Positions 5,497 through 60,016 of a DNA stretch of 60,875 nt are shown one piece after another. Location of the stretch: the IMG/VR virus record IMGVR_UViG_3300043395_000730, positions 1 to 60,875 of that record. One strand, 5' to 3'. Position numbers and translations under genes: made by a program. This DNA comes from a virus. Taxonomy: Duplodnaviria > Caudoviricetes. Positions within the stretch are counted from its first letter, which is position 1. Each line of letters begins with the position of its first letter. The notes beneath the pieces are model-generated. The model saw nothing but the letters and a program-made list of their open reading frames with translations, ran no database searches and was not told where the DNA came from.

Positions 5497-5844
5497 TTAA
5501 AATGTTGTATCGGGACTTGAATATCCGTAATTCTCTTTATCTTTAATCTCGTATTCTTGGTTTTCTCTTATAAAGAAAACAAATCCATTTTGTAGTTCAA
5601 TCAATCTGCCACGCTCAACTAATATAACATGGTTGGTATTTATAACTAAGTCTCTTTTATTAATTGTTTTGATACTCATAAAATTTGAATCTAAATTTAG
5701 ATTTTGTTTGGTAAAAAAGATATCCGTTTGATTTTGCGAAGTTATCCCCGTTACTGGCATAAATATAGTTATCTTACTAACATTATTGTGCTCATTTACT
5801 TTTAAGTTTTCCATTACTTTTGATTCTACTCTAATTACTCTCAT
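5497..5844 (-). CDS. Hypothetical early protein
   Basis: AGAAATCATG start context shared with neighbours. Confidence 0.65.
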   Translation of the reverse strand: MRVIRVESKVMENLKVNEHNNVSKITIFMPVTGITSQNQTDIFFTKQNLNLDSNFMSIKTINKRDLVINTNHVILVERGRLIELQNGFVFFIRENQEYEIKDKENYGYSSPDTTF

Positions 5845-5856
5845 GATTTCTAGTTG

Positions 5857-6063
5857 TTAAATTGAACATTTGTTTATCTCTCCTAAGTAGAAGTCATACC
5901 AATCGTTAAATCGGTCTTGTATCTCTTCGGTATATGTTAACACTTCAGCGTTTATGTCTTGGTACATATCATCCTCATTGTTGATGATATCTCCCGACTC
6001 TTGAAATGTTCTGATATGAGCTAACTCACTAGCTAACTCAAGCACGTTGATTGTTGTTTCCAT
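5857..6063 (-). CDS. Hypothetical acidic early protein
   Basis: 68 aa; AGAAACCATG start context. Confidence 0.65.
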   Translation of the reverse strand: METTINVLELASELAHIRTFQESGDIINNEDDMYQDINAEVLTYTEEIQDRFNDWYDFYLGEINKCSI

Positions 6064-6068
6064 GGTTT

Positions 6069-6281
6069 CTATTTTTCAGTTAAATTTTCACATGTAGCGT
6101 AGTCATATATCTGCTCAAATATTTTCTCTACTATGTATTCATTTGTTAGCGCATCGTATAAAATACCTTGAGCTGTTTCGTCATTACATTCAAATCTATC
6201 TTGAACGTCTTGAATTGTCCATAAGTTATCTACAAAATAACCTGCATCTCTTAATACTTGTTTTGCTTGTTGTACTGTCAT
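6069..6281 (-). CDS. Hypothetical early protein immediately downstream of hammerhead 1
   Basis: 70 aa; AGAAATCATG start context. Confidence 0.7.
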   Translation of the reverse strand: MTVQQAKQVLRDAGYFVDNLWTIQDVQDRFECNDETAQGILYDALTNEYIVEKIFEQIYDYATCENLTEK

Positions 6282-6299
6282 GATTTCTATTTTTTAAAT

Positions 6300-6356
6300 G
6301 GTTAAGACGGCACTTTGCCAGTGCCGTTTCGGTCAGTTAGACCTCGTCAGTTAACC
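6300..6356 (-). ncRNA. Type I hammerhead ribozyme 1
   Basis: GGTTAA-CTGACGA-GGTC(TAACT)GACC-GAAAC-GGCAC(TGGCAAA)GTGCC-GTC^TTAACC: full catalytic core and three paired stems. Confidence 0.93.
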
Positions 6357-6594
6357 TTGATTTCTTGAACCTAATCAAGTGACCTTCTTGGTAGTTTAAA
6401 AGGTCGTCTATCCTATCTCTTGGTATGGTAATCTTACCATGGATTGGATGGTTGATTTCGTTGATGCCAACGAATTGCTTGTTGCGAATCAATTGCTCTC
6501 GAACTGATAGTCGTCTTGTAGTTCCACTCGTCTCGTTGAAACCTACGTTTATTTTACCTGTTTTCATATGGTTAAAATTAATGTGCGTTACCAA
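6337..6594 (-). CDS. Hypothetical early protein (true start probably MKTGKINV); 3' end overlaps hammerhead 1
   Basis: ORF track; TAA stop lies in ribozyme loop II. Confidence 0.6.
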   Translation of the reverse strand: MVTHINFNHMKTGKINVGFNETSGTTRRLSVREQLIRNKQFVGINEINHPIHGKITIPRDRIDDLLNYQEGHLIRFKKSRLTDEV

Positions 6595-6617
6595 GTCGCA
6601 CCCCTTGTTTTGTTATT

Positions 6618-6893
6618 TTACGCGAAAATCTCGCCTTTCATCTTTTTATACATAAAGCATTTCTCAAATCTTGAAGGAATCAAATTAAATAAATCAATTC
6701 TCTCTTGCTTCATCTCGTTTCCAAATCTCGCCATCAAGCGTTGATGCCAATTTTCTTGAGTTTCTTTTGACCTATTAAACGGATTTCCTTCCTCTGCAAA
6801 CTTAGAGCAATACTTGTAATAAACATCAGAGTAGATGTAACCTTGAATGTCCATCATATTTGATGCGTTTTCGATTTTTTCTATTGTTTTCAT
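6618..6893 (-). CDS. Hypothetical early protein
   Basis: 91 aa; AGAAATCATG start context. Confidence 0.65.
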   Translation of the reverse strand: MKTIEKIENASNMMDIQGYIYSDVYYKYCSKFAEEGNPFNRSKETQENWHQRLMARFGNEMKQERIDLFNLIPSRFEKCFMYKKMKGEIFA

Positions 6894-6898
6894 GATTT

Positions 6899-7039
6899 CT
6901 ATTTATTATATACCTCATCCAATTGGTAGCCGTAACGCTTCTGCATGTAAGCTACATAGTTATTAAAATGTTGTTCGTTCTCAAAGTCCTTCGTAATGAT
7001 TATCTGCTCTCTACGATGGTTAAAAAATACTAGTATCAT
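6899..7039 (-). CDS. Small ORF, 46 aa (MILVFFNHRREQIIITKDF...)
   Basis: Translated by hand; ATGA overlap with the upstream small ORF. Confidence 0.55.
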   Translation of the reverse strand: MILVFFNHRREQIIITKDFENEQHFNNYVAYMQKRYGYQLDEVYNK

Positions 7040-7146
7040 CGCGCTCTGAATGGAATTAATAATCTCTTAGTCTTAACTAATGTTCCGTTTAGAAAGAATC
7101 CCCATACCTCGAAGTTCCCCTCAATTCTTAAAATTTTTGTGCTCAT
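7036..7146 (-). CDS. Small ORF, 36 aa (MSTKILRIEGNFEVWGFF...) downstream of hammerhead 2
   Basis: Translated by hand; TAACCATG start context. Confidence 0.55.
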   Translation of the reverse strand: MSTKILRIEGNFEVWGFFLNGTLVKTKRLLIPFRAR

Positions 7147-7163
7147 GGTTATTAAATTAAATT

Positions 7164-7222
7164 GGTTAAGACGCGTACTGGCAAAGTCCGCGTTTCGTCC
7201 ATTAAGGACTCGTCAGTTAACC
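7164..7222 (-). ncRNA. Type I hammerhead ribozyme 2
   Basis: GGTTAA-CTGACGA-GTCC(TTAAT)GGAC-GAAAC-GCGGAC(TTTGCCA)GTACGC-GTC^TTAACC; one mismatch in stem III. Confidence 0.92.
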
Positions 7223-7548
7223 TAGTAAAAGTATCCTTGATACTCACATCTTGAAGGCTCTTCATTTCTCCATGTCCACTCGTCTGAGTTTTCAACGATA
7301 TTTGGGAATATCCAATCACCATTGCTGAATGATATCTTTATCCCTTCATCTCGTGTTGATTTGCCGTTCATCTCAGCTACTAACTCGTAATAGTCCTTAC
7401 CCCCAAAATCACCATATCCGTTGTACTCATGCTCTACCCAAGTGTTTCCCTTGTTGTCCATTAGTACTACCTTCATAGTGTCCATTGAAGAATGAATGTT
7501 AGCAATTGACTTGTTTGTGTCTTGTGTTTTAAAACTAAAGAATCCCAT
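7222..7548 (-). CDS. Hypothetical phage protein
   Basis: MGFFSFKTQDT...YNGYGDFGGKDYYEL...QGYFY; stop abuts hammerhead 2. Confidence 0.75.
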   Translation of the reverse strand: MGFFSFKTQDTNKSIANIHSSMDTMKVVLMDNKGNTWVEHEYNGYGDFGGKDYYELVAEMNGKSTRDEGIKISFSNGDWIFPNIVENSDEWTWRNEEPSRCEYQGYFY

Positions 7549-7553
7549 GACGT

Positions 7554-7934
7554 TTAAATTTTAAAGATTTTTACCCCGTTAGTTACTATTAAATCGAATG
7601 TTTGTTTATCTACGTTACTTCCGTTCAAAGAGAAGAATGGGTTTACTCTTGGATTGTAAGATATCTCGTCTCCGTTCACATTAGACAACTCAACAATCTC
7701 GTATCTCTCACAAGATATCCAAGCACATCTCTCCTTGTGTATCTCACCCTTGTTAATCTTCTCAGCTCTTGTGCTAGAATTGTGTAAGTAGCATCCGTAC
7801 ATAACAATCATATGAGTAGAAGGGTTAACCAAGATATCTTTGCTACCCGATTTTATTTTAGACTTGCTTTCCAATTCGTGTATCTGCAAAAAGCCTTTGT
7901 TTACTGCTCCTAAATTTCTTCTTACTCCAAACAT
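7554..7934 (-). CDS. Hypothetical early protein downstream of hammerhead 3
   Basis: 126 aa; ISYNPR motif. Confidence 0.7.
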   Translation of the reverse strand: MFGVRRNLGAVNKGFLQIHELESKSKIKSGSKDILVNPSTHMIVMYGCYLHNSSTRAEKINKGEIHKERCAWISCERYEIVELSNVNGDEISYNPRVNPFFSLNGSNVDKQTFDLIVTNGVKIFKI

Positions 7935-7952
7935 GAGTTCTAAATTTTAAAT

Positions 7953-8009
7953 GGTTAAGACGACATCTTTTGAATGTCGTTTCGACTATTGAAGTCTCAT
8001 CAGTTAACC
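7953..8009 (-). ncRNA. Type I hammerhead ribozyme 3
   Basis: GGTTAA-CTGATGA-GAC(TTCAATA)GTC-GAAAC-GACAT(TCAAAAG)ATGTC-GTC^TTAACC. Confidence 0.93.
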
Positions 8010-8122
8010 TAAATGTAAATCGGTGGAACGTGCCCTGTTACGAGTTGATAGATGGCATATGAAATACCGAATATAACTCCAAACGCTAAACTGCTTGTCC
8101 AAACTGCAAATACTACTTTCAT
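8009..8122 (-). CDS. Small membrane peptide, 37 aa (MKVVFAVWTSSLAFGVIFGISYAIYQLVTGHVPPIYI)
   Basis: Translated by hand; single hydrophobic helix; stop abuts hammerhead 3. Confidence 0.6.
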   Translation of the reverse strand: MKVVFAVWTSSLAFGVIFGISYAIYQLVTGHVPPIYI

Positions 8123-8145
8123 GGCTATAAATTTAAATGGTTAGT

Positions 8146-8192
8146 GCCGTGCTGAGTTTCGCTCTCAGTAAATGACTCATAGTCAACACGGC
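8146..8192 (-). ncRNA. Minimal tRNA-like element (acceptor-like stem, one hairpin, T-arm-like hairpin)
   Basis: GCCGTG-T-TGACT(ATG)AGTCA-TTTA-CTGAG(AGCGAAA)CTCAG-CACGGC, followed by the same TAACCATTTAAA leader as the hammerheads. Confidence 0.6.
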
Positions 8193-9145
8193 TAAGTTTT
8201 TTTTCTTGGTGGAAGTATGGTTTAACGCGCTATACCAAAAACGAATACCGAATCACCCTCGGTAGGGGGCACTACCACCCTCAGATTTTTCGCGTCCTTC
8301 CTTTGGTTATGAATTTTCACGGCTTTTTCGACTTCTTGACTTTGAGTATGGCGCATCACTGCGGTTTATCTCTGCTTCAATCTCCTGTAAGCTTCAGTGC
8401 CGATATTAATACCCTCGGAGGGGGAGTGGCTCTTTGCTCAACGGGTCAGCCTATCCCGTGCGGTGTATTTTATAGTGCTATCGCTTTCGCACCTCGCTTT
8501 ATTAGACTCGCGGTCTCAGTCCAACTATGTGACCACGTTTGGTCGTTGATTCTGAAACAAAGTAACGGCAACTGATTGGATTAATAACAAACTTTTTGCT
8601 ATACGTTTTTAAAAATACGTGTTTATACGTATAAGGATCTAAGTGTTTATACGTAGTGATGACACAATGAGAGAGCTAGTTTATGACTGGCAAAACCTTA
8701 TTGGTATTTGGATTGATGTGAATAACATATAAATTGCAATAAATTCATTTGGGGATTTGTTTACATAGGTGTTCCAACCCCTACCCTCCAATCAATCGCT
8801 CTGAAACGTAGAACGGACGGTCGATTGGTCGATTGGTCTGCAGTTCTATTTAACATAATACATGTTATAGTACAAGTTGTGTGGGCAAATTTAAGGGTGG
8901 ATGAATTGGTCTCAGATAATAACCACCACCCCACCCCTACGCACAAGCACACCCACCCCTACACACGTGCGCGTAGCGTACATGCAGGCAGGCAGGCAGG
9001 TCGCTAGGCAAAAAGCCAAAAAGTCCGACCGAACTTTCCAAAATGCATACCCCCATGTCGATTTTCAAGTCGTTTCGGTCGATCGGGCTGGAGCGCCAGA
9101 TGGGGGTATTACCCAAAAATTCAGTATATTTACCAAAAAATATAT

Positions 9146-9391
9146 ATGCCTGGCAAAAGAAAGATAGTTATAAAGGACAACACGTATATCAGTGACGGTA
9201 AGGGTGGTAAGGTAAAGGCTCCTTGGATGGCTGGTGACATTGACGTTACCAAGACGATAACAACACCTAGGAAGACCAAAACAATCAGAGACTACTCATA
9301 CACTGATGCTGGTGTCAAGAAAACATTCCGAGACGTCACGGTAGTAAAAAAGGGTAAAACAGTCAAACAAAAAACAATTAGCCGTGGTTAA
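9146..9391 (+). CDS. Basic hypothetical protein
   Basis: First ORF of the + strand block; K/T-rich. Confidence 0.6.
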   Translation: MPGKRKIVIKDNTYISDGKGGKVKAPWMAGDIDVTKTITTPRKTKTIRDYSYTDAGVKKTFRDVTVVKKGKTVKQKTISRG

Positions 9392-9475
9392 AAAACACAT
9401 CAAACGGAAGAACACGATCAAGAAGAACTTGGATCTAATAAAAAAGAATTCATTATCTTTACAAAAAATAAAGTC

Positions 9476-9727
9476 ATGCCAAACGATAAAAAAATAAAGA
9501 CGAAAACCGTAGAACATTCTACAGCTAATAAGTTTGTAGCGGTTCCTAATCCATTCAGAACTATTAAAAAAACTCCTTCTGGTTTGCCTACAAGGTTTTA
9601 TAATGAGGTTCCAGTTAAAACAACAACAACTGTTTTTAAAGACGGTACTGTAAAAGTAAAAACAAACAAACGCATTGATCCAAATAATCCTAACGTTATA
9701 AATAATAAGAGGTGGATGAAAGGATGA
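9476..9727 (+). CDS. Basic hypothetical protein
   Basis: K/T-rich; AAAGTCATGCC start context shared with 13673. Confidence 0.6.
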   Translation: MPNDKKIKTKTVEHSTANKFVAVPNPFRTIKKTPSGLPTRFYNEVPVKTTTTVFKDGTVKVKTNKRIDPNNPNVINNKRWMKG

Positions 9728-9848
9728 CAGTAATCCTACAGTTTAGTATACCTTACGGCCTTAATGTTGGTTTTGAGTATTACAAGGCTGAGGAAGGTTT
9801 AGACAATGAGCTTCACCTAAATTTGTTAATTTTTAAAATTATGTTATT

Positions 9849-10937
9849 ATGGCATTAAAAAGAGCACCAAAGGACGTAGATCCGATAACTGGAGCTAGGA
9901 TAGCTTCAAAATCACTATATGGCAAGAAGGCTGGAAATGAGACCATATCATCATGGCCAGATGTTAGGAATATGTATAAATCTGGTAAGCTAAAGATAGA
10001 GAATCTAAAGAACTACGACAAGCCAGTAATTGACTACATCACTGGGAAAACAGATAAGATAAGTGACGTTGAGTACGATGAGCCTAGAATGTATACATCT
10101 AAAACAGCGGCAGGTGGTAGTAAAATTGATGTTCGTTTTGACTATAAGCCAGGTGGTAGTTTTTACAAAAAAGCATATGCTGCTGAGGGTAAAAACAGAC
10201 CAAAAGAGTCTGAAGGAATGGAGAGACAGTACTATGCTGGAATGGCTAGTGGTAAGATGGGTAGTTTCGGTAGTGGGGGATCTCGTTATAAAAACCCTAC
10301 TATTGACGTACCTACAGTTAAAAAGTCAGATCCAAGAGAGGACATTGGAAGAATGCCTACACTTAAGGCTAACAAAATAACTCGTAAACCAAACTTGGTA
10401 GAAAGACAGAAAGAAGAAGAGTGGACGGCCCCTTCAAAAAGAACTCCAAGAGGCGGTGAGACTGGAGCAAAATCAATAACATATTTTAAAAATAAAGGTC
10501 AAAGAGGCTACACATATGGCAAGGAGCAAAAGATGGCTGCTGCTTATTATGGTATGGGTCAAGGTGAGGGTACTGACGTTGCTAGGTATAAGAGTCCAGG
10601 AGAGCTATCTGAATACAGAAAAGAACTGAAGGGATATATAAAGGAATCAAGATCAGACAGAAAAGAAAAAACTTTGCCTGCTGAGAAGAGAGAAATTACA
10701 AAAATGATAAAATTGTATAAAGAGGAAGGCAAGCAAGCAAAACTCGGACAGAAATACATAGAGTCTCTTCCTCAAGGCCAAAGATATATGGGTGTTCGTA
10801 CATCAGATGTCAAGAGAGGTGGAAGTTTAGAGGATGTTAAAACGTCAATAAAGCCAAAGAAACCAATAAGGTTTTTCACAACAGAGGCAGTGCAGGGTGC
10901 TACAGCACAAGACTTGAAGAAAAAAACCAAAAAATAG
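9849..10937 (+). CDS. Large K/R/G-rich hypothetical protein
   Basis: 362-aa ORF followed by a terminator. Confidence 0.75.
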   Translation: MALKRAPKDVDPITGARIASKSLYGKKAGNETISSWPDVRNMYKSGKLKIENLKNYDKPVIDYITGKTDKISDVEYDEPRMYTSKTAAGGSKIDVRFDYKPGGSFYKKAYAAEGKNRPKESEGMERQYYAGMASGKMGSFGSGGSRYKNPTIDVPTVKKSDPREDIGRMPTLKANKITRKPNLVERQKEEEWTAPSKRTPRGGETGAKSITYFKNKGQRGYTYGKEQKMAAAYYGMGQGEGTDVARYKSPGELSEYRKELKGYIKESRSDRKEKTLPAEKREITKMIKLYKEEGKQAKLGQKYIESLPQGQRYMGVRTSDVKRGGSLEDVKTSIKPKKPIRFFTTEAVQGATAQDLKKKTKK

Positions 10938-10945
10938 ATAAAACA

Positions 10946-10968
10946 GCCCTCCAATCGGAGGGTTTTTT
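10946..10968 (+). terminator. Rho-independent terminator
   Basis: CCCTCC-AATC-GGAGGG followed by TTTTTT. Confidence 0.8.
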
Positions 10969-10980
10969 GTTATTTATTAT

Positions 10981-10988
10981 TATATTTG
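10981..10988 (+). promoter_or_regulatory. Bacteroidota-type -7 promoter element upstream of groEL
   Basis: TATATTTG matches TAnnTTTG. Confidence 0.7.
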
Positions 10989-11005
10989 TGTCAAAATATA
11001 ATAAA

Positions 11006-12574
11006 ATGGTAGTAAAACATGTTCATTTAGGCCAAGAAGGCCAACAAAAGCTCAAAAAAGGCATCAAGACGATCGCTGGAGCAGTCAAAAGTACATTAGG
11101 TGCGCGAGGGCGCACGGTACTAATAGAGTCAGAGCACCATGTGGGTGGTATAACAGTAACAAAGGACGGTGTAACGGTCGCTAAGTCGATAAACTTGTTT
11201 GATCCGACTGAGAACTTGGCTGTTATTATGATGCGCCAGGCTGCTGAGAAGACAGCAACGGTTGCTGGTGACGGTACAACCACATCTATAGTATTGGCTG
11301 AGGCTCTTATCAACTCTTCTGACGTACACTTATCTGACACAGACAACGTGACTGAGGTTATAAGAGAGATAAACGACCTAACAAAGGACGTTGTGGCGTA
11401 TTTAGACAAGAAAAGTAAAAAGGTAAAGGGTAAAAAGTTGGTTGATGTAGCCACTATAAGCGCAAACAACGACAGAGAGATCGGTAAGATGATCGCTAGT
11501 GCGTTCAACGAGGTTGACGTTGTTACTGTTGAGAACAGTATGACAAGCAACACATATGTCGAGATAATAAAAGGTATGAAGATCGACCGTGGAATGACGT
11601 CACCTTACTTTATCACAGACCAAAAGAAGCAAGAGTGTGTTCTTGACAACCCATACGTGTTGATATGCGATCACGAGATAAATAACTTGATATCTATCGA
11701 GAGTATATTAAAGCACTGCGTTATGAACCAAAAGCCGTTATTGATTATTGGTACGTTAGGCCAGAACGCTATGAACACATTAAACTTAAACGTGGCTAAG
11801 GGGCAGATCAAGGCGTGTAACATTCAGCCACCATCGTTTGGGTACCGCACAAAGGACCTTATGGAGGACATAGCTATCGCTACAGGCGGTACGTTCTTCT
11901 CTGAGTCTACTGGTGACGATTTGTCATTAATAACTGTAGCTGACCTAGGTCGTGCGAACCGTATTGTTGTGAGTAAGGGTATGACGGTATTTATGCCAAA
12001 CGCTGAGAGGGCTGATGCTATCGACACACAAGTTAGTCAGCTAAAGGACTCTAGATCTGAGATGTCATCCGACAAGGAGTTGCTTGACTTTACGAACGAG
12101 CGTATTGCAAACCTATCTGGCGGTGTTGGTGTTATATATGTTGGTGCCTTAAGTGACATTGAGCAGAAGGAGAAGAGAGATCGTATTGACGACGCTGTGT
12201 GTGCTGTAACTGCTGCACTAGAGGAGGGTATACTTCCAGGTGGAGGTATAGCGCTAGTTGACGCTGCATCATTCACACTACGTGGAGACAGTACTGCTTG
12301 TAAGATAATGCGTGACACTGTGATCGCTCCGTTCTATCAGATATTAATTAACGCAGGTAAGGACCCAGAGGAGATAAAGGCTAATATGTTGCCAATAGAG
12401 AACGAGGGGTATGACGTTAAGAACGAGCAGTACGGTGACATGTTAAAGCTTGGCATCATTGATCCAGCGAAAGTTACAAAGAACGCACTGTTAAACGCAG
12501 TGTCTGTAGCTACTACTATAATGAGCACAAATGCAATAATAACAAATGTAAGAGCAGATGAGAGTATTAAATAA
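11006..12574 (+). CDS. groEL: Phage-encoded chaperonin GroEL (Cpn60)
   Basis: AVKSTLG, VTKDGVTVAK, AGDGTTT, GGG and GIIDPAKV motifs; start moved to ATG 11006 after the promoter; no GGM tail. Confidence 0.95.
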   Translation: MVVKHVHLGQEGQQKLKKGIKTIAGAVKSTLGARGRTVLIESEHHVGGITVTKDGVTVAKSINLFDPTENLAVIMMRQAAEKTATVAGDGTTTSIVLAEALINSSDVHLSDTDNVTEVIREINDLTKDVVAYLDKKSKKVKGKKLVDVATISANNDREIGKMIASAFNEVDVVTVENSMTSNTYVEIIKGMKIDRGMTSPYFITDQKKQECVLDNPYVLICDHEINNLISIESILKHCVMNQKPLLIIGTLGQNAMNTLNLNVAKGQIKACNIQPPSFGYRTKDLMEDIAIATGGTFFSESTGDDLSLITVADLGRANRIVVSKGMTVFMPNAERADAIDTQVSQLKDSRSEMSSDKELLDFTNERIANLSGGVGVIYVGALSDIEQKEKRDRIDDAVCAVTAALEEGILPGGGIALVDAASFTLRGDSTACKIMRDTVIAPFYQILINAGKDPEEIKANMLPIENEGYDVKNEQYGDMLKLGIIDPAKVTKNALLNAVSVATTIMSTNAIITNVRADESIK

Positions 12575-38127: not shown

Positions 38128-41100
38128 ATGAACGATAAATTACAACAACTTTATAATCTATACAAGAGTAAAGGTTTAATTAATACTACAGATTTTAATA
38201 CATTCGCTTCTGCAAACAGTCAGCAAATCCAACAACTATATAATCTTGGAAAGAAAAATGGCCTGTTTAATACTACAGATCTTAATACATTTAGTTCTGC
38301 ATTTAGTCCTCAACAAAAATGGAGACAAGTAACTGAGAAGGAAAGTGCAGGTAGATTGAATTACAGAAAAGATGATTTCAGAACTTGGGACATAGTAGAA
38401 GAGACTCAGAAGGGAATGACCAAGGAGGAGAGAAAGAAAACTGGGTTTGATTATACGCCAGAACAAATAGCTGCTGGTAAAAAAGCTGTTGCTATGGAAG
38501 AGGCTCCAGTTATTGAATACTCTGACCTTAAACTGAGAAGAGGTAAGGATGGCGTTTTCTACAAGGTAGAAGGTAATAATTGGTACGAGGTGGCATTTCC
38601 TAGAGATATGTCAAAAAATATTATAAACGAAAGTGTAGTAAGTCTTGAGGGCTCTGATCTTTATAAAATAAATGATCCTAAAAAAGTAGAGAGCTTAAAC
38701 ATTGAGTTTGGCGAAAAAGTAAAATTACCTAATGCTGGTTTTGATACCGATCAAAAATTAATCAAGTCTGGCATAGATACAAAAATACCATCTGTTCTAA
38801 ACAAAGCAGTCAAACCAGAGGATGATCCGTATGATGTTTTTGGAGGATGGGACGATAATACTAGAGGTCTTAGATTTAGAAAGGACGATTATTCTAATGT
38901 TTGGCTGCAAATCAAACCAGGTGTTGATTCAGGATGGTCTGTAGTTACAGAAACCATGGCTAAAGAATTAAACAAGCGTTATGGTGGTAAGTATGGTTCT
39001 GTGCCTAAACAAGCTGAGAACTTGACTGATTACCAGATATTAAACAAGACGTACGGACAAGAAGGTGGTTCTGGAGTCTTAAAAAGAGAACTACTTCCAG
39101 ATGGAGAGCCTACTTTTGGACTTCCGAAATCAGTAGAGAATGCAGGTTGGTTTCAAACACTTTACCCTCAGACAATGATGGGTCAAGTTGTAAATGCTCA
39201 AGAGGCGAGAAGAAGAGGTATGACATCTTTTGATGACAAGGTACATAGATTCGTATCGAATAATAATATAGCTAGACTTGAAGAAGAAGAGGCTGTAAAA
39301 ATGCTTACAAATGAGTTCGGTAGATATGGTTTTGAGTTTATAGAATCTGGAGTTAATGACGAGATGATCGTAAGAACAAAAGATGGCTTACGTGAAGTAG
39401 TAATAAATCTTGATACTGATGATCTAGGAGAAAATATAAGACTTCAAGATTTCTTAATAGTTAATATGGACCCATCTGCTTACGAGGCAGGTGATCAAAA
39501 ATACGCAGAGCTTATAAATAGAGACAGACGTCTCATTTATTCTAATAATGGTAGCAACAGTGCATCTCTTTATAAAGACCTAAAAGAGTTATTTAACGAT
39601 GAGGACTATAAAATATGGGCTCAAAATTTACCTTACGGTGAACTAGAACAAGAGGTAAACTATAGGATAGGTGAGTATAGAAGCTTAATGAATAAACCTG
39701 GAGTTAATAGCTCTGAAGTATTTAAAGATATGGAGACGTTTAAAAAATCTCCTATGTATCAACAATATCAAAAAAATAAGAAAGAGGCATTTGAGCTCGA
39801 AAGAATGAAAATGCAGTCACTGTATGATGAAGTTAGATTAGATCCAGGACAAAATTCAAGAGCTAGACAAAAGGTTAGAATGTTCTTGTCTGATAAATAT
39901 TTAGACAAAGCAAAAACTGAGTACAATGCAATGCTAAATGATATCAATCAGTCTGCTAAATTTTTAAAGACTAGATATGATGAATATCATAATGAACTTC
40001 AGAAATTAAACACGTCAAACTTAACGCCAGAACAAATAAGAGTTAAGAAAGAACAACTTGACAAAATGGCGTTACAGCTGGATGTAGATCGATCTAACTT
40101 AATTAGAAGACAAAAGGCCGTTACAACTGAAGCCAAGCAGCTTGAGTATTTAACAGGTAAGTATGTTGTTGACGTGGCTAAAGAAGGTGGATTTATTGGT
40201 GGGTTGATGAATAGCTTCTCAGACGGTATATCAAAAATGATAAAGACAGGAGATGTTGTTGGAAGGTTGCAAGCAGAGACAAAGGGTTCTCAGATTGCAG
40301 ACAACATGACAGAAGAGGAAAAGAGATACTATAAAACAAAAGGATATTCATTAGAAGAGATTAAAATAGCAGAGGCTAATAAAGCTTGGAAGGAATCAAA
40401 AGAAGATCTTTCTAACAGGATGAAGTCCGCTATTGGTGATCTAGCTACAACTAAACAGTACCAACAGTCTGAAGATAGAGGTATTGTTAGTAAAGCATTG
40501 TTTGGTCTTGCAGAATCTCTTCCAGCAATGGCTACATCATTTATTAATCCATACGTTGGTTTTGGATCATTGTCAGCTCAAGCATATTCATCTTTAGAGG
40601 ATGAGATGTTAAATGATCCAGATTTTGAAACAACGTCACTTACAGAGATGAACTTAATAGCATTACCATATGCTATGGCTATGGGAGCCTTGGAAAAGAT
40701 TGGTCTTAGTTCAGCTATGTCTAAAAACCCTCTTGCTAAGTCTCTTATAATGAAGTCTATACAAGGGGCTGTTAAAAAGACAACAGGTAAAGGATCAGCA
40801 GAACTTTTACAAAATGTACTAGACAAAGAGATCAAGTCGAATATGGCTAAGTTTGGAATAAGGATAGTCGGTGGTGCACTAACCGAGGCTGAAACTGGGG
40901 CTACTCAGTCATTGGTACTTGATATTGGATATAAGAGCTTGATCAACGAAATAAAAAAAGACGATAGACTAGCAAGCGAACTAACTGGAGGTGAGTTTTT
41001 TGATACCCCAGATAGCTTTATGGATGGTCTAAAGATGGTTATAGAGGATGGTATAGCTGAAGGTATTGGCGGTATGGTTATGAGTGGATTTGGATCTATG

Positions 41101-44100
41101 TCTCAAAAGGTTATAAATGGAAATATATCTCTTTATGATAATGAAGATGTTGATTTTTTAAAAACTGTTTCAACTGACAACGAGCTAAGAAAGATGATTG
41201 TGATAAAACTTAAGAGCGATATGCTTACTGGTAAAATTACAAAGTCTGAAGCTGAGAAACAATTGAACGCTCTTGATAAGGTTGGTGCTATATTTAATGC
41301 TATGCCTGACAACCTAAGTGTTGAGGACCAAGTTAAGTCTGTAAACCTTATGTCTGAAAAGCAAAGACTTGAAAAAGAAATTGACGGCAAGGATCAATCT
41401 CTTGTTGCCGCTCAAAAGGAAAGAATAACAGAGATTGATAACGAACTACAAAAAATTAGTAAAGATGCCTTTCAAAAGCAAGCAACAGGTGAAGTTCCTG
41501 TACAGCCAGAAGCCAGAGTTGGCGAAGAAGTGGAGGGAAGAAAACCCGAAACAAAACTTGAAGAAGTTACCAAAAAAGGTCAAGAAGGTGTAGTACAAAC
41601 ACAAGTTCCTAGAAAAAAAGGTTGGCAAAATAGTGTTGTTAAAAAAGAAGAATCAACTACTCCATCTGGAGATAAAGTAACTACATATAAGGCTTATGCT
41701 GTAAATGAAAATGGCAAAGAGACTAATATGGGAACAGGTATCTTAACTACTATAGGAGAAATTGCACCTTTAGTAAAAGGAACTGAAGGTGAATTAATGT
41801 TTTATGATGAAGATGGTAATTTAAAAGAAGATCCTAATGCTGAACTTTATATAACAAAAACAATAGAGGGAACCAATCAAGATGGAAGCTATCAACAGAG
41901 GGTTACAGTAGTTGCTAAAGGAGATTTAGAATTTAATGGAAGGATACAAGCTGATTTTACTACAAATAAAAATGTTGTAGTAGGCGAATCATCTTATAAA
42001 TCTAATTTAACAACTAAACAACAACAAGAAGTAACAATAGATAAACCTGTTATTGCTACAAATACAACGGCCGAACTTGATAGAGTTAAGTCTGTTGATA
42101 TGGAGACTGAAGATGGTGCTACGTTTAATATAGACGGAACTAAGTACGAAGGTGGTGGTTTGGTTGTTCCTATTGTTAGTGAGAACACTACTGTTGAGGA
42201 GATCACTCCAGAGATGATATCTGACTTTGTTGAAAAACATTCAAGCAAAATTGGAGATCAAAATACAGTTAAGGTTGGTATATATAAATTCCCTAACAGT
42301 AACAAGGTATCGATAGACCTAAATATCGTTGCTCCAGAGTCATCAAGACAGCAAGCCATTGAGTTTGCAAAAGCTGCTGATCAAGAGTCTCTGTTTGATT
42401 TATCTACATTTGAGAATGTAAAGACTGGCGGTACTGGAGTTAATCCTACACAATTTACTGACGAACAATTTAAAGAGATAGCTAAAGCTCTTAACGAAGG
42501 AAGAACTCCTAGTTTTGCAGCACCTACGCAACAAAACCTAGTAACACTTGAGAATGTAGAAGAGGTTGCAGACAAAAGAACAGCCACTGCCATTAAGTTG
42601 GTATTGAACGCTCTTCCTGACGTTAAGATATATATTCACAAGACAAACGAAGAGTACTCTGCCGCAATAGGTGAAGAGGCTGAAGCTGGAGACAGAGGAG
42701 CATACGATACACAAGAAGGAGCTATACACATTAATTTAGCAGCTGGAGGTAACGCTCAAACTGTTTTCCATGAGGCTATCCACCATGCATTACTAAAGAA
42801 AGGTATGGACAGTGGAGCTATACTTGATTTGGCTAATGGTCTTAATAGAATAATTACTGACAAGAAGTTAAAGAAAAGGTTAAGTGATTTCATATCTCAA
42901 TATGAAACATCTGACCAAGCTGAAGAGTATTTGTCAGAACTAGGGGCCATAATGGCTGAAGCTGAGATCGAACTAACTACAACAAAGTTCAATCAGTTTA
43001 AAGCGCTTATCGCTAGAATATTCCAAAAGTTAGGACTACCTAAATCTATGGTTCCTTTCTTGAATGCTATGAATTCAGAGAACGCTGTTGACTTTATTAA
43101 TAGTTTGACTAAATCTTTGAGGACTGGTGAAAACATAATGACTGACGGTTTTCAATCAACTATTAATCCAACTAACAAAATAAAGAAACAGGTTGAAGTT
43201 AAAGAAGGATATAAGCTTTCTTATGTTAAACAGTCTGATATAATAGATATACAATCATTAATATCTGACATTGCTTCAAATGATCAAAATGTTTGGTTCT
43301 GGGTTGCTGATCAACTTGGTAGAGGATTTGTTGAGGATGATGTTATAGATGGAAAACACTATTTAGATGCTGGGCCTTCATTTGCTCTTGATCCTAAAAA
43401 TAGAGAGAGAGGTATAATATGGGCGTCTGGAGCTAATCCAAGGACACTTCAAAATAATATAAATAAAAGTGATTATATATTCATTATAAGTGGATCGCCT
43501 CAAAAATCAAAGTTATTTAATAAGACCGTATCAAATCTAGTAAGATCTAGAATAGAAAAAAGTGTTGATTTCGATACATTTAAAAAATCACTTATAGAGG
43601 CTAATGCTCCAAAAGATATAACGTCAATACTTGAAAAATATAACAGTTATGATGATTTATTTAATGGTCCAGATAGAAAAGCATTTTTAATAGCTATAGG
43701 CAATCAAGCAAATAAGAAGGCTACTAAATCTAAACAATTACTTGAATCATATAATGCTTTTGTTGATTATGATTCATTGAGAGATGATTTCTATAGAGAG
43801 AATGGATTTGAAATGGGTGATATAATGCTTGTATTGAAGCCTACAGGTGTTGGTGAAAAATCAGATCATTCGACATATGAGAATAATATTTTAGGTGAAG
43901 TTGTAGGTGTTCCAGATTCTATAATAAATTCTTATGATATCCTTCCAGAAGAAACTAGAAATAAATACAAAGAAGATATAAGCAGAGTTCAACAACAACA
44001 AGTTGTGGCTCCTTATGGTATGGGTGTTAGTAAAGTTAAAAAACACAAAGGTGAAAAAATAACTGCACCAGTAGCTGGAAACAAGTTGTTCAATGAGCCT

Positions 44101-47100
44101 TTAAAGGATGCTGAAAATATAGCTAGATCTTACATGCAATCTATCGGTATGGAATACGTGCCAGTAGAAAAGATAACAAAACTAGATGAAGATCTTTCAA
44201 AAAGAATATCTGACGCTTACGATCAGATGGAAAATAATCCAAACGATCCGAAGGTAAAGGCTGCTTATGAGGCTATGGCTAAGGAAACATTAGATCAGTA
44301 TGACGCTATAGTTAAAGAAGGCTACAATGTTGAGATAAATAATAACGAGCCTTACTCCAACTCTGAGGCTATGATAAAAGACCTTAAGGATAATAAGAGG
44401 ATGAAAATATTCTCTACAGAATCTGGTTTTGGAGATGAGCCTATAACTGAAGAGCAGAGATCTGAAAATTTATTATTAAAAGACTCTGGAAGAAAGGATG
44501 TAAATGGTGAGACTTTATTGATCAATGACGTGTTTAGATTTGTGCATGACTTCTTTGGTCACGCCAAACTAGGCAACAGTTTTGGTCCAGTAGGAGAAGA
44601 GAATGCTTGGAGAGTTCACTCTGAGATGTATTCTCCAGAAGCTAGAAAGGCTATGACATCTGAGACAAGAGGTCAAAATAGCTGGGTTAATTTTAGTGGT
44701 GTAAATGACGCTGCATTCAAGAAGAGAGATAAGGCTAGAGAACTTCGTAAAGAAGGTAAGACAGAAGAGGCTGATAGATTGGTAGGTGAGGTATATGAGG
44801 AGATGAAATTTGCCGATCAAAAGGTTGGCATATTGCCAGATTTTGCTATTGAAGAGGGGACTAGGTTTAAAAAACAGAAAGATAATACTGGATATAGATC
44901 TGGGGATTTAATAAAAAAAGCAGAAACTAAAGATAAATTCGAAGGAAGTGATAGAAGCACTGGTCATTTTGGCACTGGATTTTATTTTTTTGGAACTAAA
45001 AACCAAGCAGATCAATATGGTGAACGAGCTACAAGTACTATTGATTTAGATGGATATAATTTAGCAAAAGGAACTATTGAACTTCATGATTTATTAAAAG
45101 ATATCAATAACAATTCTATAGGTAAAAATAAAAATATAGATAAATTAAAATCTAGAATTGAAAATTTATTAAATTACCTAGGTAAATCAGAAGTTACCAA
45201 ATTAAGTCGCGATTATTCTGAACTAGAATTTAAATCTTATGTTCAAAGTGAAATAAATCAAAAAAATAAAATAGAATCAATAATAAATGAAATAAATAAT
45301 AATAATGTTGATTCTCCATCAACAGTAGTTATGAAATCGTTGGGATTTGATGGTGTAGATTCAAGAGGTACAGATTTAGATAATGCTCAATATGGAAGTG
45401 TAGTATATTCAATAAAACAATTCAAAAAACAAAAACCAACATCCAAACAAGAGGCCATCCAAAAGGCCAAGGATAAGTACGAACTGTCTGTAGAGAAGAG
45501 AGGTAATTCTCACGAGCAAGGCGTAGCCGCTGCTCTTGGTGACTTGCAAAAGTCTAATTGGTTTGCAAACGCTGACGATACAGCTAGAGAAGATGCAGTT
45601 AGAGAGATCAAGGCTTTCTTTGGTGAGAAGATTAAGAAGGCTCCATCTGTTGCTAAGATTTTAGGTAAACCAAAACCAGAGACGCAAACAAAAACCGTTG
45701 ATGCCTTACGAAAAGAATTCTTTACTGCTTGGAACAAAGCGTCAAGAGAAGCAAAGGCCGATCTAAATTCCAAAAGAAAAGCCATCGGAGCTATCATCAA
45801 GTCAATGGTCCGATCTGGCAAAATAACTACCAAACAAGCAGCCGTTATAACAGACAGGGCTAGCAGTATAAATCTTGAGAACCCAGTAATTGTACAAAGA
45901 TTCTTGGACTACGTTAGTAAGGTATTTGCTGACGCTAACTATCAAGAGAAGTTAAGCAACGCTTTCTCTACTAGAAAAGCGATAAGAAGATTAACTAAGT
46001 CAAACAACCAAGCAGAGGTTATAGGGATGGCTAAGGCATTCCTAAATATAGACCCATCAATGGTTGAAGACATAGACACATACAACGAGATAGCTGAGTC
46101 AATCAAAAATGCTATGGCTCCATCTGTTGTAAGAGGAGAGCAAGTTAAGTTCAAGCAACCAGCCAATATAGCTGACGTGAATGAATACACGATGGAAGAG
46201 CTGTCAAAACAAGAGGAAATTAAAAAGGACCAATTGTTGGCTGAGTATGACTACCTTAAGGATGCTGGTTTGATATCTAAAGACATGACTCTAAATGAGA
46301 TAAGAAAGATCATAGAGGATATGAAGTCTACAGATACTGATATCAACGATGACGTTAAAGACTTTGTTGAGAGAAGACTAGATATGATGCTTGGTATTGT
46401 AGAGTCTATTATTAGAACTGGAGTCAATCCAATCACTGGAGAACCTATGGAGATATCTGATAAAAACAAAGATATCCTAAAAGCTATAATGAAGATGGAT
46501 CTAAAAGAACTTGATACAAGAAGCTTGATCTATCTATCTGAATCTGTAGATAACTTCCTAAATAACGGAATAACAAGCGGTCTTGAGGCTAATGTACAGT
46601 CATATGTTGGAGCTATGAAAGTTAAGGCTCTTGTAAATGCTGGCGTTAAATCTGTTGGTATAAAAACAAAAGCTTCTAAGATAGCATCTACTGAAATACT
46701 TAGCATACCTTTATTATTTGAAAAATTATTTAGAGGTACTACTATTGGTACTAGAATAATGAGTGATATGGGATTGTTGGATATGGTTAACGGCAAAAAT
46801 AAAGCTGAACTTATATACAACAAAATACTTGAATCGTACACAAAGCAAGATTTCTACGGAAAGGACTTTATGACTCAACAGAACATCATAGAAAGAGGTA
46901 TGCTTGCATATCTTATGAGAAATGTTAATGGTGATAACGCTCAAGTTAAAGCAGAACTAAACAGGAGAATTGACGCTATATCTGAGAGTATTAAACAACT
47001 AAAAGAAGGAAATAGCGATGAGCAGAAACTAGCTGAAATGTATGAGAATGCATTCTCTAAGTTAAAAGTAAATTCTAGAGACATTGATATCATAAGAGCT

Positions 47101-59818: not shown

Positions 59819-59890
59819 CTGCCTAGAGTTTTTACCTATGTGGAGGCTAACCTCAGAACCCTAACTGCTGTCCACCATGAACAAATTTGT

Positions 59891-60016
59891 TGTCAGGACA
59901 GGATTCGAACCTGTATCTATGATGGGATTTCTCCTAAGTATGAGGTGTGCTTACGATTATATTTTCAAATCTTTATCACTCCATCCTATAGCGTCTACCA
60001 ATTCCGCCACCTGACT
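59891..60016 (-). ncRNA. tRNA-like RNA with Leu/Ser-type D and T arms but no canonical anticodon arm
   Basis: GTCAGG/CCTGAC acceptor, TGGCGGAATTGGTAGACGC D arm, ACAGGTTCGAATCCTGT T arm, about 75-nt interior. Confidence 0.7.

Follow-up and report, generated by a model that had tools for sequence, protein, structure and literature searches.

The window analysed here, the 60,875-bp sequence of a complete IMG/VR virus record (IMGVR_UViG_3300043395_000730) from a freshwater phage, carries on its minus strand, directly before the first early open reading frame (ORF), a 47-nt element (8192-8146) whose RNA folds as a three-way junction. This element is a conserved, previously undescribed structured RNA family, neither a chance fold nor a decayed hammerhead. 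The motif is new, although of a general kind that is known, and could realistically turn out to be a ribozyme of a new class. Its probable role is to mark a site of RNA cutting; among the mechanisms considered, we tentatively favour the mimicry of a tRNA elbow, by which host tRNA-processing endonucleases would be recruited to part the leader RNA, itself structured, from the early mRNA.

In the window copy, a 6-bp closing stem, P1 (8192-8187 with 8151-8146), whose first base is a G paired to C8146, surrounds two hairpins. The first, P2 (8185-8173), pairs 8185-8181 with 8177-8173 around a 3-nt loop (8180-8178); the second, P3 (8168-8152), pairs 8168-8164 with 8156-8152 around the 7-nt loop AGCGAAA (8163-8157). 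They are separated by the 4-nt junction J2/3 (8172-8169), which reads UUUA, and P3 meets the 3' strand of P1 with no base in between. These stems and loops, as well as the direct join of P3 to P1, had all been named in a previous sequence-only reading and are present on the minus strand. The extent proposed there, 8123-8195, contains the structured core but also takes in the leader that follows it. This tail and leader (8145-8123, minus strand) begins with a conserved R-C-N-A-A-C-C (8145-8139) and continues as an A/U-rich sequence up to the start codon. Its 12-nt stretch TAACCATTTAAA has exactly three exact copies in the window (6293-6304, 7946-7957 and 8132-8143), all on the minus strand, in agreement with the shared leader noticed previously. 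The 23-nt gap reported between the 3' edge of the element and the ATG (8122-8120) was likewise recovered when measured from the end of P1 at 8146, and the position between 8145 and 8144 is the register-equivalent of a hammerhead cut. The ORF itself (8122-8009, minus strand) encodes a small hydrophobic protein of 37 aa without match in PHROG. It is the first minus-strand ORF after a 1.65-kb stretch devoid of long ORFs (8196-9848), beyond which, reading the minus strand, a leftward cluster of small ORFs begins. Taken by itself, the fold of the window copy is moderately unusual (minimum free energy of -17.5 kcal/mol, z = -2.84, with 1 of 200 shuffles as good), and the case against chance rests on comparative evidence.

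Relatives were fetched through the GroEL-like gene of the window (10967-12574; PHROG 5725), and 80 loci (designated by L numbers) were chosen from 275 confirmed relatives, giving 81 sources with the window. Five close relatives have copies nearly identical to that of the window, although the sequence 5' of P1 is unrelated to the window's. A covariance model built from three near-identical sequences (R1) gave 49 matches at E <= 0.01 in the 81 sources, and a second model built from these matches (R2) found the element in 51 of them, as one copy each, always on the early-gene strand, upstream of the first early ORF and 1.7-3.4 kb upstream of GroEL. Among the 30 sources without match, 22 include no more than 2.6 kb of sequence on the upstream side of GroEL and may therefore not reach the slot, and the region is complete in the other eight; neither the element nor a canonical type-I hammerhead was recognised in the three of these eight that are most distant. 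One more divergent copy was found by a script search in L126, and a dozen additional members, on other contigs, came from a pattern scan covering all viral contigs. An exact pattern made from P2 and loop 3 of the window retrieved 14 stretches, of which six are the known close relatives and the other eight have no P3 helix seen in the sequence. A looser pattern lacking the tail retrieved mostly chance matches among those listed, R2 matching four (L280, L282, L298 and L316) of the 110 loci searched (L280-L389) and none of the other 106.

The secondary structure is strongly supported by covariation; a covariance model from related phages had been named as a check in the sequence-only reading. In a first alignment (A3; 49 sequences, 40 distinct), standard pairs occupy 94.3% of the cells, versus 21-38% when the partners are slid by one to three columns. 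Compensatory changes on both sides affect 14 of the 16 pairs, including all six modelled pairs of P1, and the observed covariation score was reached by none of 500 shuffles. From a larger alignment (63 sequences, 53 distinct), RNAalifold independently predicted the same junction, with 14 of its 15 pairs compensated. In the usual form of the family, P1 has 7 bp, P2 and P3 have 4 bp each, with loops of 5 nt and 7 nt respectively, and the junction has 4 nt; no member has a linker base between P3 and the 3' strand of P1. The window belongs to a subtype with a P1 of 6 bp and a P3 of 5 bp. Over the 42 distinct sequences comprising both element and tail, P1 has 7 bp in 32 (31 combined with a 4-bp and one with a 5-bp P3), 6 bp in seven, including the window, and 8 bp in three. 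The sum of P1 and P3 is nevertheless 11 bp in 38 of them and 12 bp in the other four, a near-constancy which fits a continuous stack of the two helices.

The two hairpin loops also covary with each other. Only 4 bp of P2 are supported family-wide: U8181, the base 5' of the loop, shows no covariation with its local partner, and its equivalent covaries instead with position 6 of loop 3, which is A8158 in the window (alignment columns 22-49: AU 35, UA 10, GC 3, GU 3 and other 2 in the 53 distinct sequences), with 13 double changes spread over several P1 backgrounds. A second loop-loop pair is U-G in 42, C-G in five, U-A in two and other in three of the 53 distinct sequences. A third one, between a G of loop 2 and the C at position 3 of loop 3, G8178 and C8161 in the window, is GC in 51 and AU in one of the 53; the lone A-U case (L044) also alters the adjacent pair. 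This covariation indicates that the two loops kiss and that the fold is compact. G-U pairs in P1 (UG 6, GU 1) and in the tertiary contact (UG in 42 of 53) would become A-C mismatches on the opposite strand; the fold is thus specific to the sense strand, and forms in the RNA. Outside of the helices, about 20 positions are invariant or nearly so, located in loop 3, J2/3, the U-A pair at the base of P3 and the C, A, A of the tail. Positions 1, 2, 5 and 7 of loop 3 are identical in all 53 distinct sequences, position 3 is a C in 52 and position 4 a G in 51, while J2/3 reads UUNA in 52 and the U-A pair at the base of P3 is present in all. In the tail, the purine, the C and the first A are found in 53 of 53 and the next A is invariant or nearly so; the third base is U in 45, A in seven and G in one, and never C. 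One phage departs from this pattern: in L055 (4107-4158; the same contig as L138), all that is left of the element is a 10-bp hairpin with a loop of 14 nt, behind which the usual tail and leader are present. The idea that the tail pairs with P2 or J2/3, forming a switch or pseudoknot, was considered and rejected, as a by-eye check of the subtypes showed no conservation of such a pairing and no change of partner in the tail variants.

No known family accounts for this RNA. The Rfam search called for previously was performed with Rfam 15 on the window and four relatives and matched no family to the element, even in 121-nt and 131-nt searches at E <= 10. The region 5800-9800 of the window had no blastn match in the GenBank phage collection, and a consensus pattern retrieved no stretch, and no prophage copy, from 185,579 prokaryotic genomes. 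The fold is nowhere described in the literature searched, although lists of ribozyme-associated motifs in supplementary files might include it.

The sequence preceding the element is always untranslated, structured and of several interchangeable kinds, and an A/U-rich leader and an ATG invariably come after it. In 18 of 41 distinct upstream contexts it contains a T-arm module, composed of a GGUUCGAUUCC loop on a covarying 5-bp stem and enclosed by a covarying CUUG/CAAG stem, with an invariant UAUAUAA stretch, which lies 10-15 nt upstream of the element in L005, L024, L038, L063 and others (e.g. L024:4265-4310, minus strand). Another 18 contexts contain a hairpin module with a covarying 6-bp stem and an 11-nt loop, AGUUUCACGUG; both this loop and a purine-rich stretch ahead of the hairpin are conserved, and the module is located directly upstream of the element in L041 (4895-4925, minus strand), L013, L029 and others. 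The T-arm module is not called as a tRNA by ARAGORN, and searches of the leader modules against Rfam, at gathering and permissive thresholds, returned only its 17-nt resemblance to the T arm of tmRNA and no match for the hairpin module. The remaining five contexts, including that of the window, carry other sequence. The untranslated leader region of the window (8560-8196, minus strand) is homologous in parts to the leaders of relatives, in particular at about 8300-8440 to those of L015 and others. Contigs of three RNA libraries cover 8204-8536, in two runs; being assembled contigs, they prove neither transcription, strand nor ends, and DNA carry-over is possible. One of 143 nt (8204-8346) begins and ends with adapter letters, a hint of a discrete small RNA. 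Contigs of run X22 leave the element and the first ORF uncovered. A terminator-like hairpin of 7 bp with a U-rich tail is also present in this leader (8264-8237, minus strand), about 55 nt upstream of the element; none was seen upstream of the element in other leader types.

Three canonical type-I hammerheads lie further along the early genes of the window, all on the minus strand: hammerhead 3 (8009-7953), with a predicted cut at 7959/7958 and then the leader that also follows the element, hammerhead 2 (7222-7164), with a predicted cut at 7170/7169, and hammerhead 1 (6356-6300), with one at 6306/6305. The hammerhead core pattern matches the window three times, at these places, versus 0.03 matches expected, and each of the three ends with UUAACC followed by an A/U-rich leader and an ATG. 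They match weakly to the Rfam models RF03152 and RF00008, whereas the element has no hammerhead match at E <= 10. The element shares with these hammerheads its slot, strand and downstream leader, a similar size (about 50 nt for the hammerheads) and a three-way junction with a tertiary contact between helices. It differs by its covarying helices, by a junction of 4-5 nt compared with 11, and by its restriction to the first slot. Moreover, the core CUGANGA ... GAAA does not appear in its family consensus, the window copy having no G5 and an insertion before CGAAAC, and a CAC without stem III stands where the NUH triplet GUC would be needed. The description of the element as a non-hammerhead structure is accordingly well founded. 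As a separate observation, type-I hammerheads with an identical stem I (GGUUAA/UUAACC) were found in at least 119 viral-contig stretches (loci L085-L203), with up to five in a single 3.8-kb locus (L105) among the matches listed; the constancy of this stem I suggests that UUAACC, the 5' end set free by the cut, is functional in its own right.

Hammerheads can replace the element. In L019 and L020, a canonical type-I hammerhead comes right after the hairpin module that elsewhere precedes the element, and in L015 one comes right after a leader homologous to that of the window; the ORF behind the hammerhead of L019 is itself homologous to the ORF behind the element in L022. Hammerheads of this type also occur at a similar distance from GroEL in L079 and L084, perhaps in the same slot. 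The exchange is one-way: hammerheads are present downstream of the element in 32 of the 51 element-bearing sources and upstream of it in none, and the element never occurs twice in one source nor at an internal gene junction. The earlier idea of an interchangeable module therefore holds for the first slot of these three loci, but not as a free exchange, since the element is single-copy and confined to that slot. This restriction suggests either a dependence on untranslated sequence upstream or a functional tie to the leader RNA, of which the element could for instance form the 3' end.

Considering the fold, the position at the boundary between leader and first ORF and the replaceability by a self-cleaving ribozyme, we lean towards the view that the RNA is severed at or beside the element. 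The element would be a compact cis-acting RNA at the point where the leader RNA, structured and untranslated, gives way to the first early mRNA, and would do at the first slot what type-I hammerheads do at the other gene junctions. How the cut would be made is less certain. Our preferred explanation, which we put forward tentatively, is that the element mimics the tRNA elbow in a minimal form and is cut by RNase P of the host, by its RNase Z or by both, whereby the structured leader RNA would be parted from the early mRNA. P1 stacks on P3 to a total of 11-12 bp, with P2 lying alongside P3 and the loops paired; the P1/P3 stack would mimic the acceptor/T-arm and the contact between the P2 and P3 loops the D-loop/T-loop elbow. 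Such mimicry would lead the host tRNA-processing endonucleases to cut the element. RNase P is predicted to cut between 8193 and 8192, immediately before the G that opens P1, and an RNase Z-type enzyme after the unpaired purine behind P1, between 8145 and 8144. The latter cut would leave an mRNA with a 6-nt YUAACC 5' end, in register with the hammerhead products. According to excerpts of PMC11143913, RNase P recognises the tRNA elbow by stacking, is documented to cut mRNAs and RNAs of phages, and also takes hairpins as substrates, pre-4.5S RNA among them. The plain hairpin with tail of the L055/L138 phage fits this enzyme better than a ribozyme.

Several features of the family agree with those of a tRNA. 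The first pair of P1 is G-C in 51 of the 53 distinct sequences, as in an acceptor stem starting with G1-C72; positions 3-5 of loop 3 are C, R and A, as in C56-R57-A58; the pair between the G of loop 2 and the C at position 3 of loop 3 may correspond to G19-C56; and the 4-nt J2/3 resembles a variable loop. Compared with a 3' R-C-C-A, the R-C-N-A tail keeps the discriminator-type purine and the C, while its third base is never C. The loop-loop pair of columns 22-49 has no tRNA counterpart. The 5-bp hairpin likened to a T arm in the sequence-only reading does have a 7-nt loop and no linker to the closing stem, but its stem is reduced to 4 bp in most relatives and its loop departs from the T-loop consensus.

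A number of points weigh against the tRNA-elbow explanation. The loop AGCGANA agrees with the T-loop consensus U-U-C-R-A-N-N at positions 3-5 only, with A-G instead of U-U at positions 1-2, and the same leaders hold a separate module with a canonical GGUUCGAUUCC T arm, which indicates that these phages use a true T loop where it is selected. The P1-P3 stack has mostly 11 bp and not 12, P3 has 4 bp in most members, and the element is devoid of anticodon arm. ARAGORN found no gene in the window and the Rfam tRNA model did not match the element. The loop-loop G-C pair equated with that of the elbow shows a single double change (L044), a thin covariation support. The cut-to-ATG distance is 22-24 nt in 33 of 36 distinct hammerheads, the register that would result if the element were cut one base beyond P1, and the P1-end-to-ATG distance is 23-25 nt in 33 of the 42 distinct element-plus-tail sequences; the leaders being homologous cassettes, this equality is not independent evidence. 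The cut itself is inferred; the RNase Z step presumes that the host has an RNase Z; and in one relative an RNA-library contig bridges the element into the first ORF, representing either uncut RNA or contaminating DNA. In a separate search, no RNA-processing enzyme was recognised by Pfam among 20 early and other proteins. Elsewhere in the window, a tRNA-like gene (59890-60016, minus strand), whose D arm is of the Leu type and whose anticodon region contains an insertion of 67 nt, reaches 34.3 bits with the Rfam tRNA model, ARAGORN finding no tRNA in the window.

The bridging contig is compatible with a different role, in which the element is a stable structure of the 5' untranslated region that folds autonomously, is never cut and may shield the translation start of the first ORF from the structured leader, protect the 5' end of the mRNA after upstream decay or bind a protein of the phage or host, for example in antitermination where the early operon begins. 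We consider this rather unlikely. The element is single-copy and always at the start of the operon, as are nut/put-type elements, the plain-hairpin variant of L055 suits a purely structural role, and the window has its terminator-like hairpin (8264-8237) 55 nt upstream. On the other hand, this terminator-like site lacks an equivalent upstream of the element in other leader types, and the invariant bases of the loop and tail, together with the kissing contact, exceed the needs of a stabilising hairpin. Above all, the replacement of the element in three loci by a hammerhead whose sequence is catalytically intact is hard to square with a role needing intact RNA.

The same replacement would also suit a new class of small self-cleaving ribozyme, in which the 47-nt three-way junction with kissing loops is predicted to cut the early transcript in cis and to free the first mRNA in place of a type-I hammerhead. 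In favour of this possibility, which we regard as unlikely on balance, the element swaps place with a canonical hammerhead at the first slot, its non-helix conservation extends over some 20 positions, its compact tertiary fold with a loop-loop contact recalls natural hammerheads, and no known family accounts for it, the Rfam models of twister, twister-sister, pistol, hatchet, HDV-like and hairpin ribozymes giving no match at E <= 10 in the 121-nt and 131-nt searches. Twister-sister, pistol and hatchet were reportedly found through their association with known ribozyme loci; most ribozyme-associated motifs tested so far, to our knowledge, did not cleave. A general self-cleaver would however be expected to spread to internal junctions, where the element is never found and where hammerheads sit in 32 of the 51 sources, and its restriction to the first slot therefore counts against a ribozyme. 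A junction with only 4-5 unpaired bases and the retention of only a plain hairpin and tail in the L055/L138 phage point in the same direction.

A role of the DNA itself, as a hairpin promoter of an N4-like virion RNA polymerase, an origin or a packaging signal, is very improbable. It could draw on the presence of a 3702-aa ORF (38128-49236), on the 5-bp stem and 3-nt loop of P2 in the window and on iteron-like repeats 650 nt upstream. However, the G-U pairs tie the fold to the sense strand, P1, which would be placed upstream of any such start, covaries fully, P2 has a 4-bp stem and a 5-nt loop in most members, and the only family match of the 3702-aa protein is a PHROG of unknown function, over residues 1991-2191. 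An N4-type hairpin promoter is thus not supported, in view of this PHROG result and of the G-U pairs. Least credible of all, and already contradicted by the covariation, is a decayed, inactive hammerhead in a slot no longer needing cleavage: the CU-AUGAG, CGAAAC and C-UAACC stretches of the window align with the neighbouring hammerheads, but these resemblances are absent from the family consensus, the covarying helices are not those of a hammerhead, the loop conservation is far above that expected for a relic and hammerhead models do not match the element.

Other known RNAs offer partial parallels. The P1-closed three-way junction with two parallel hairpins joined by kissing L2-L3 loops is the architecture of purine-type riboswitches; the element shares the closed junction and the parallel, loop-joined hairpins, but its junction leaves far too little room for the known ligand pocket, the covariation includes no expression platform and no Rfam match exists. 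The mascRNA of MALAT1 is a tRNA-like substrate of RNase P and RNase Z. Other tRNA-like RNase P substrates named in excerpts of PMC11143913 are the C4 RNA precursor of phages P1/P7, the tRNA-like structure of TYMV and pre-4.5S RNA. The likeness of the element to such substrates lies in a G-C-initiated stem of 6-8 bp stacked on a helix whose loop has 7 nt, in a loop-loop G-C pair that may be elbow-like, in the R-C-N-A of its tail and in a placement where a long transcript has to be divided; the difference lies in the missing anticodon arm and consensus T loop, the mostly 11-bp stack and its invisibility to tRNA models. Twister-sister, pistol, hatchet and the RAGATH motifs are likewise conserved RNAs found in the hammerhead context of phage-like DNA, reportedly through association with hammerhead and twister loci; the element has no Rfam match to them and differs in topology, with one closing stem around two kissing hairpins. 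Theta ribozymes, minimal HDV-like ribozymes which adjoin phage tRNAs (excerpts of bioRxiv 10.1101/2023.06.13.544163), share the theme that small phage ribozymes and tRNA processing both form RNA ends. As presented there, they adopt the HDV double pseudoknot and stand 3' of real tRNAs, and the element has neither. A parallel in placement is halovirus HF2 (PMC3088659), in which a hammerhead lies at the 5' end of the early transcript with an RNA 5' end mapped near the cut; the processing element is upstream of the first ORF of an early polycistronic transcript, as here, that of HF2 being a hammerhead variant.

The remainder of the 8196-9848 stretch carries further signals. Two ACGTATAAACAC copies and a partial third, spaced by about 24 nt (8654-8599, minus strand), are operator-like and lie near the expected leftward promoter. 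Iteron-like GACCAATCGACC repeats occur at 8819-8838, about 650 nt upstream of the element, and at about 9050-9110, and a segment (8970-9150) containing the 7-bp inverted repeat CCCCCAT/ATGGGGG is conserved in 36 loci beyond the close relatives. These repeats and this segment may constitute an origin or a regulatory region between divergent gene clusters. The neighbouring gene (9849-10937), encoding 362 aa, has no relatives in the viral contigs and no match in PHROG or Pfam.

Hammerheads dividing polycistronic RNAs of phages and bacteria are already known (PMC3088659, PMC6765202), and the function of bacterial and phage hammerheads is still presented as an open question in the excerpts of PMC6765202. 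This phage group offers a natural experiment in this respect, with a second, unrelated RNA fold in the leader position of the hammerhead and before the same kind of leader. If host tRNA-processing enzymes cut the element, it would represent a tRNA-type punctuation replacing a ribozyme in a bacterial virus, together with a very small elbow mimic; if the element cuts itself, it would define a new ribozyme class. Either outcome, if true, would mean that the hammerheads of these phages serve the formation of RNA ends, and would yield a part of 47 nt usable in RNA engineering. Comprising 53 distinct sequences with strong covariation, the family is defined well enough for direct testing at the bench.

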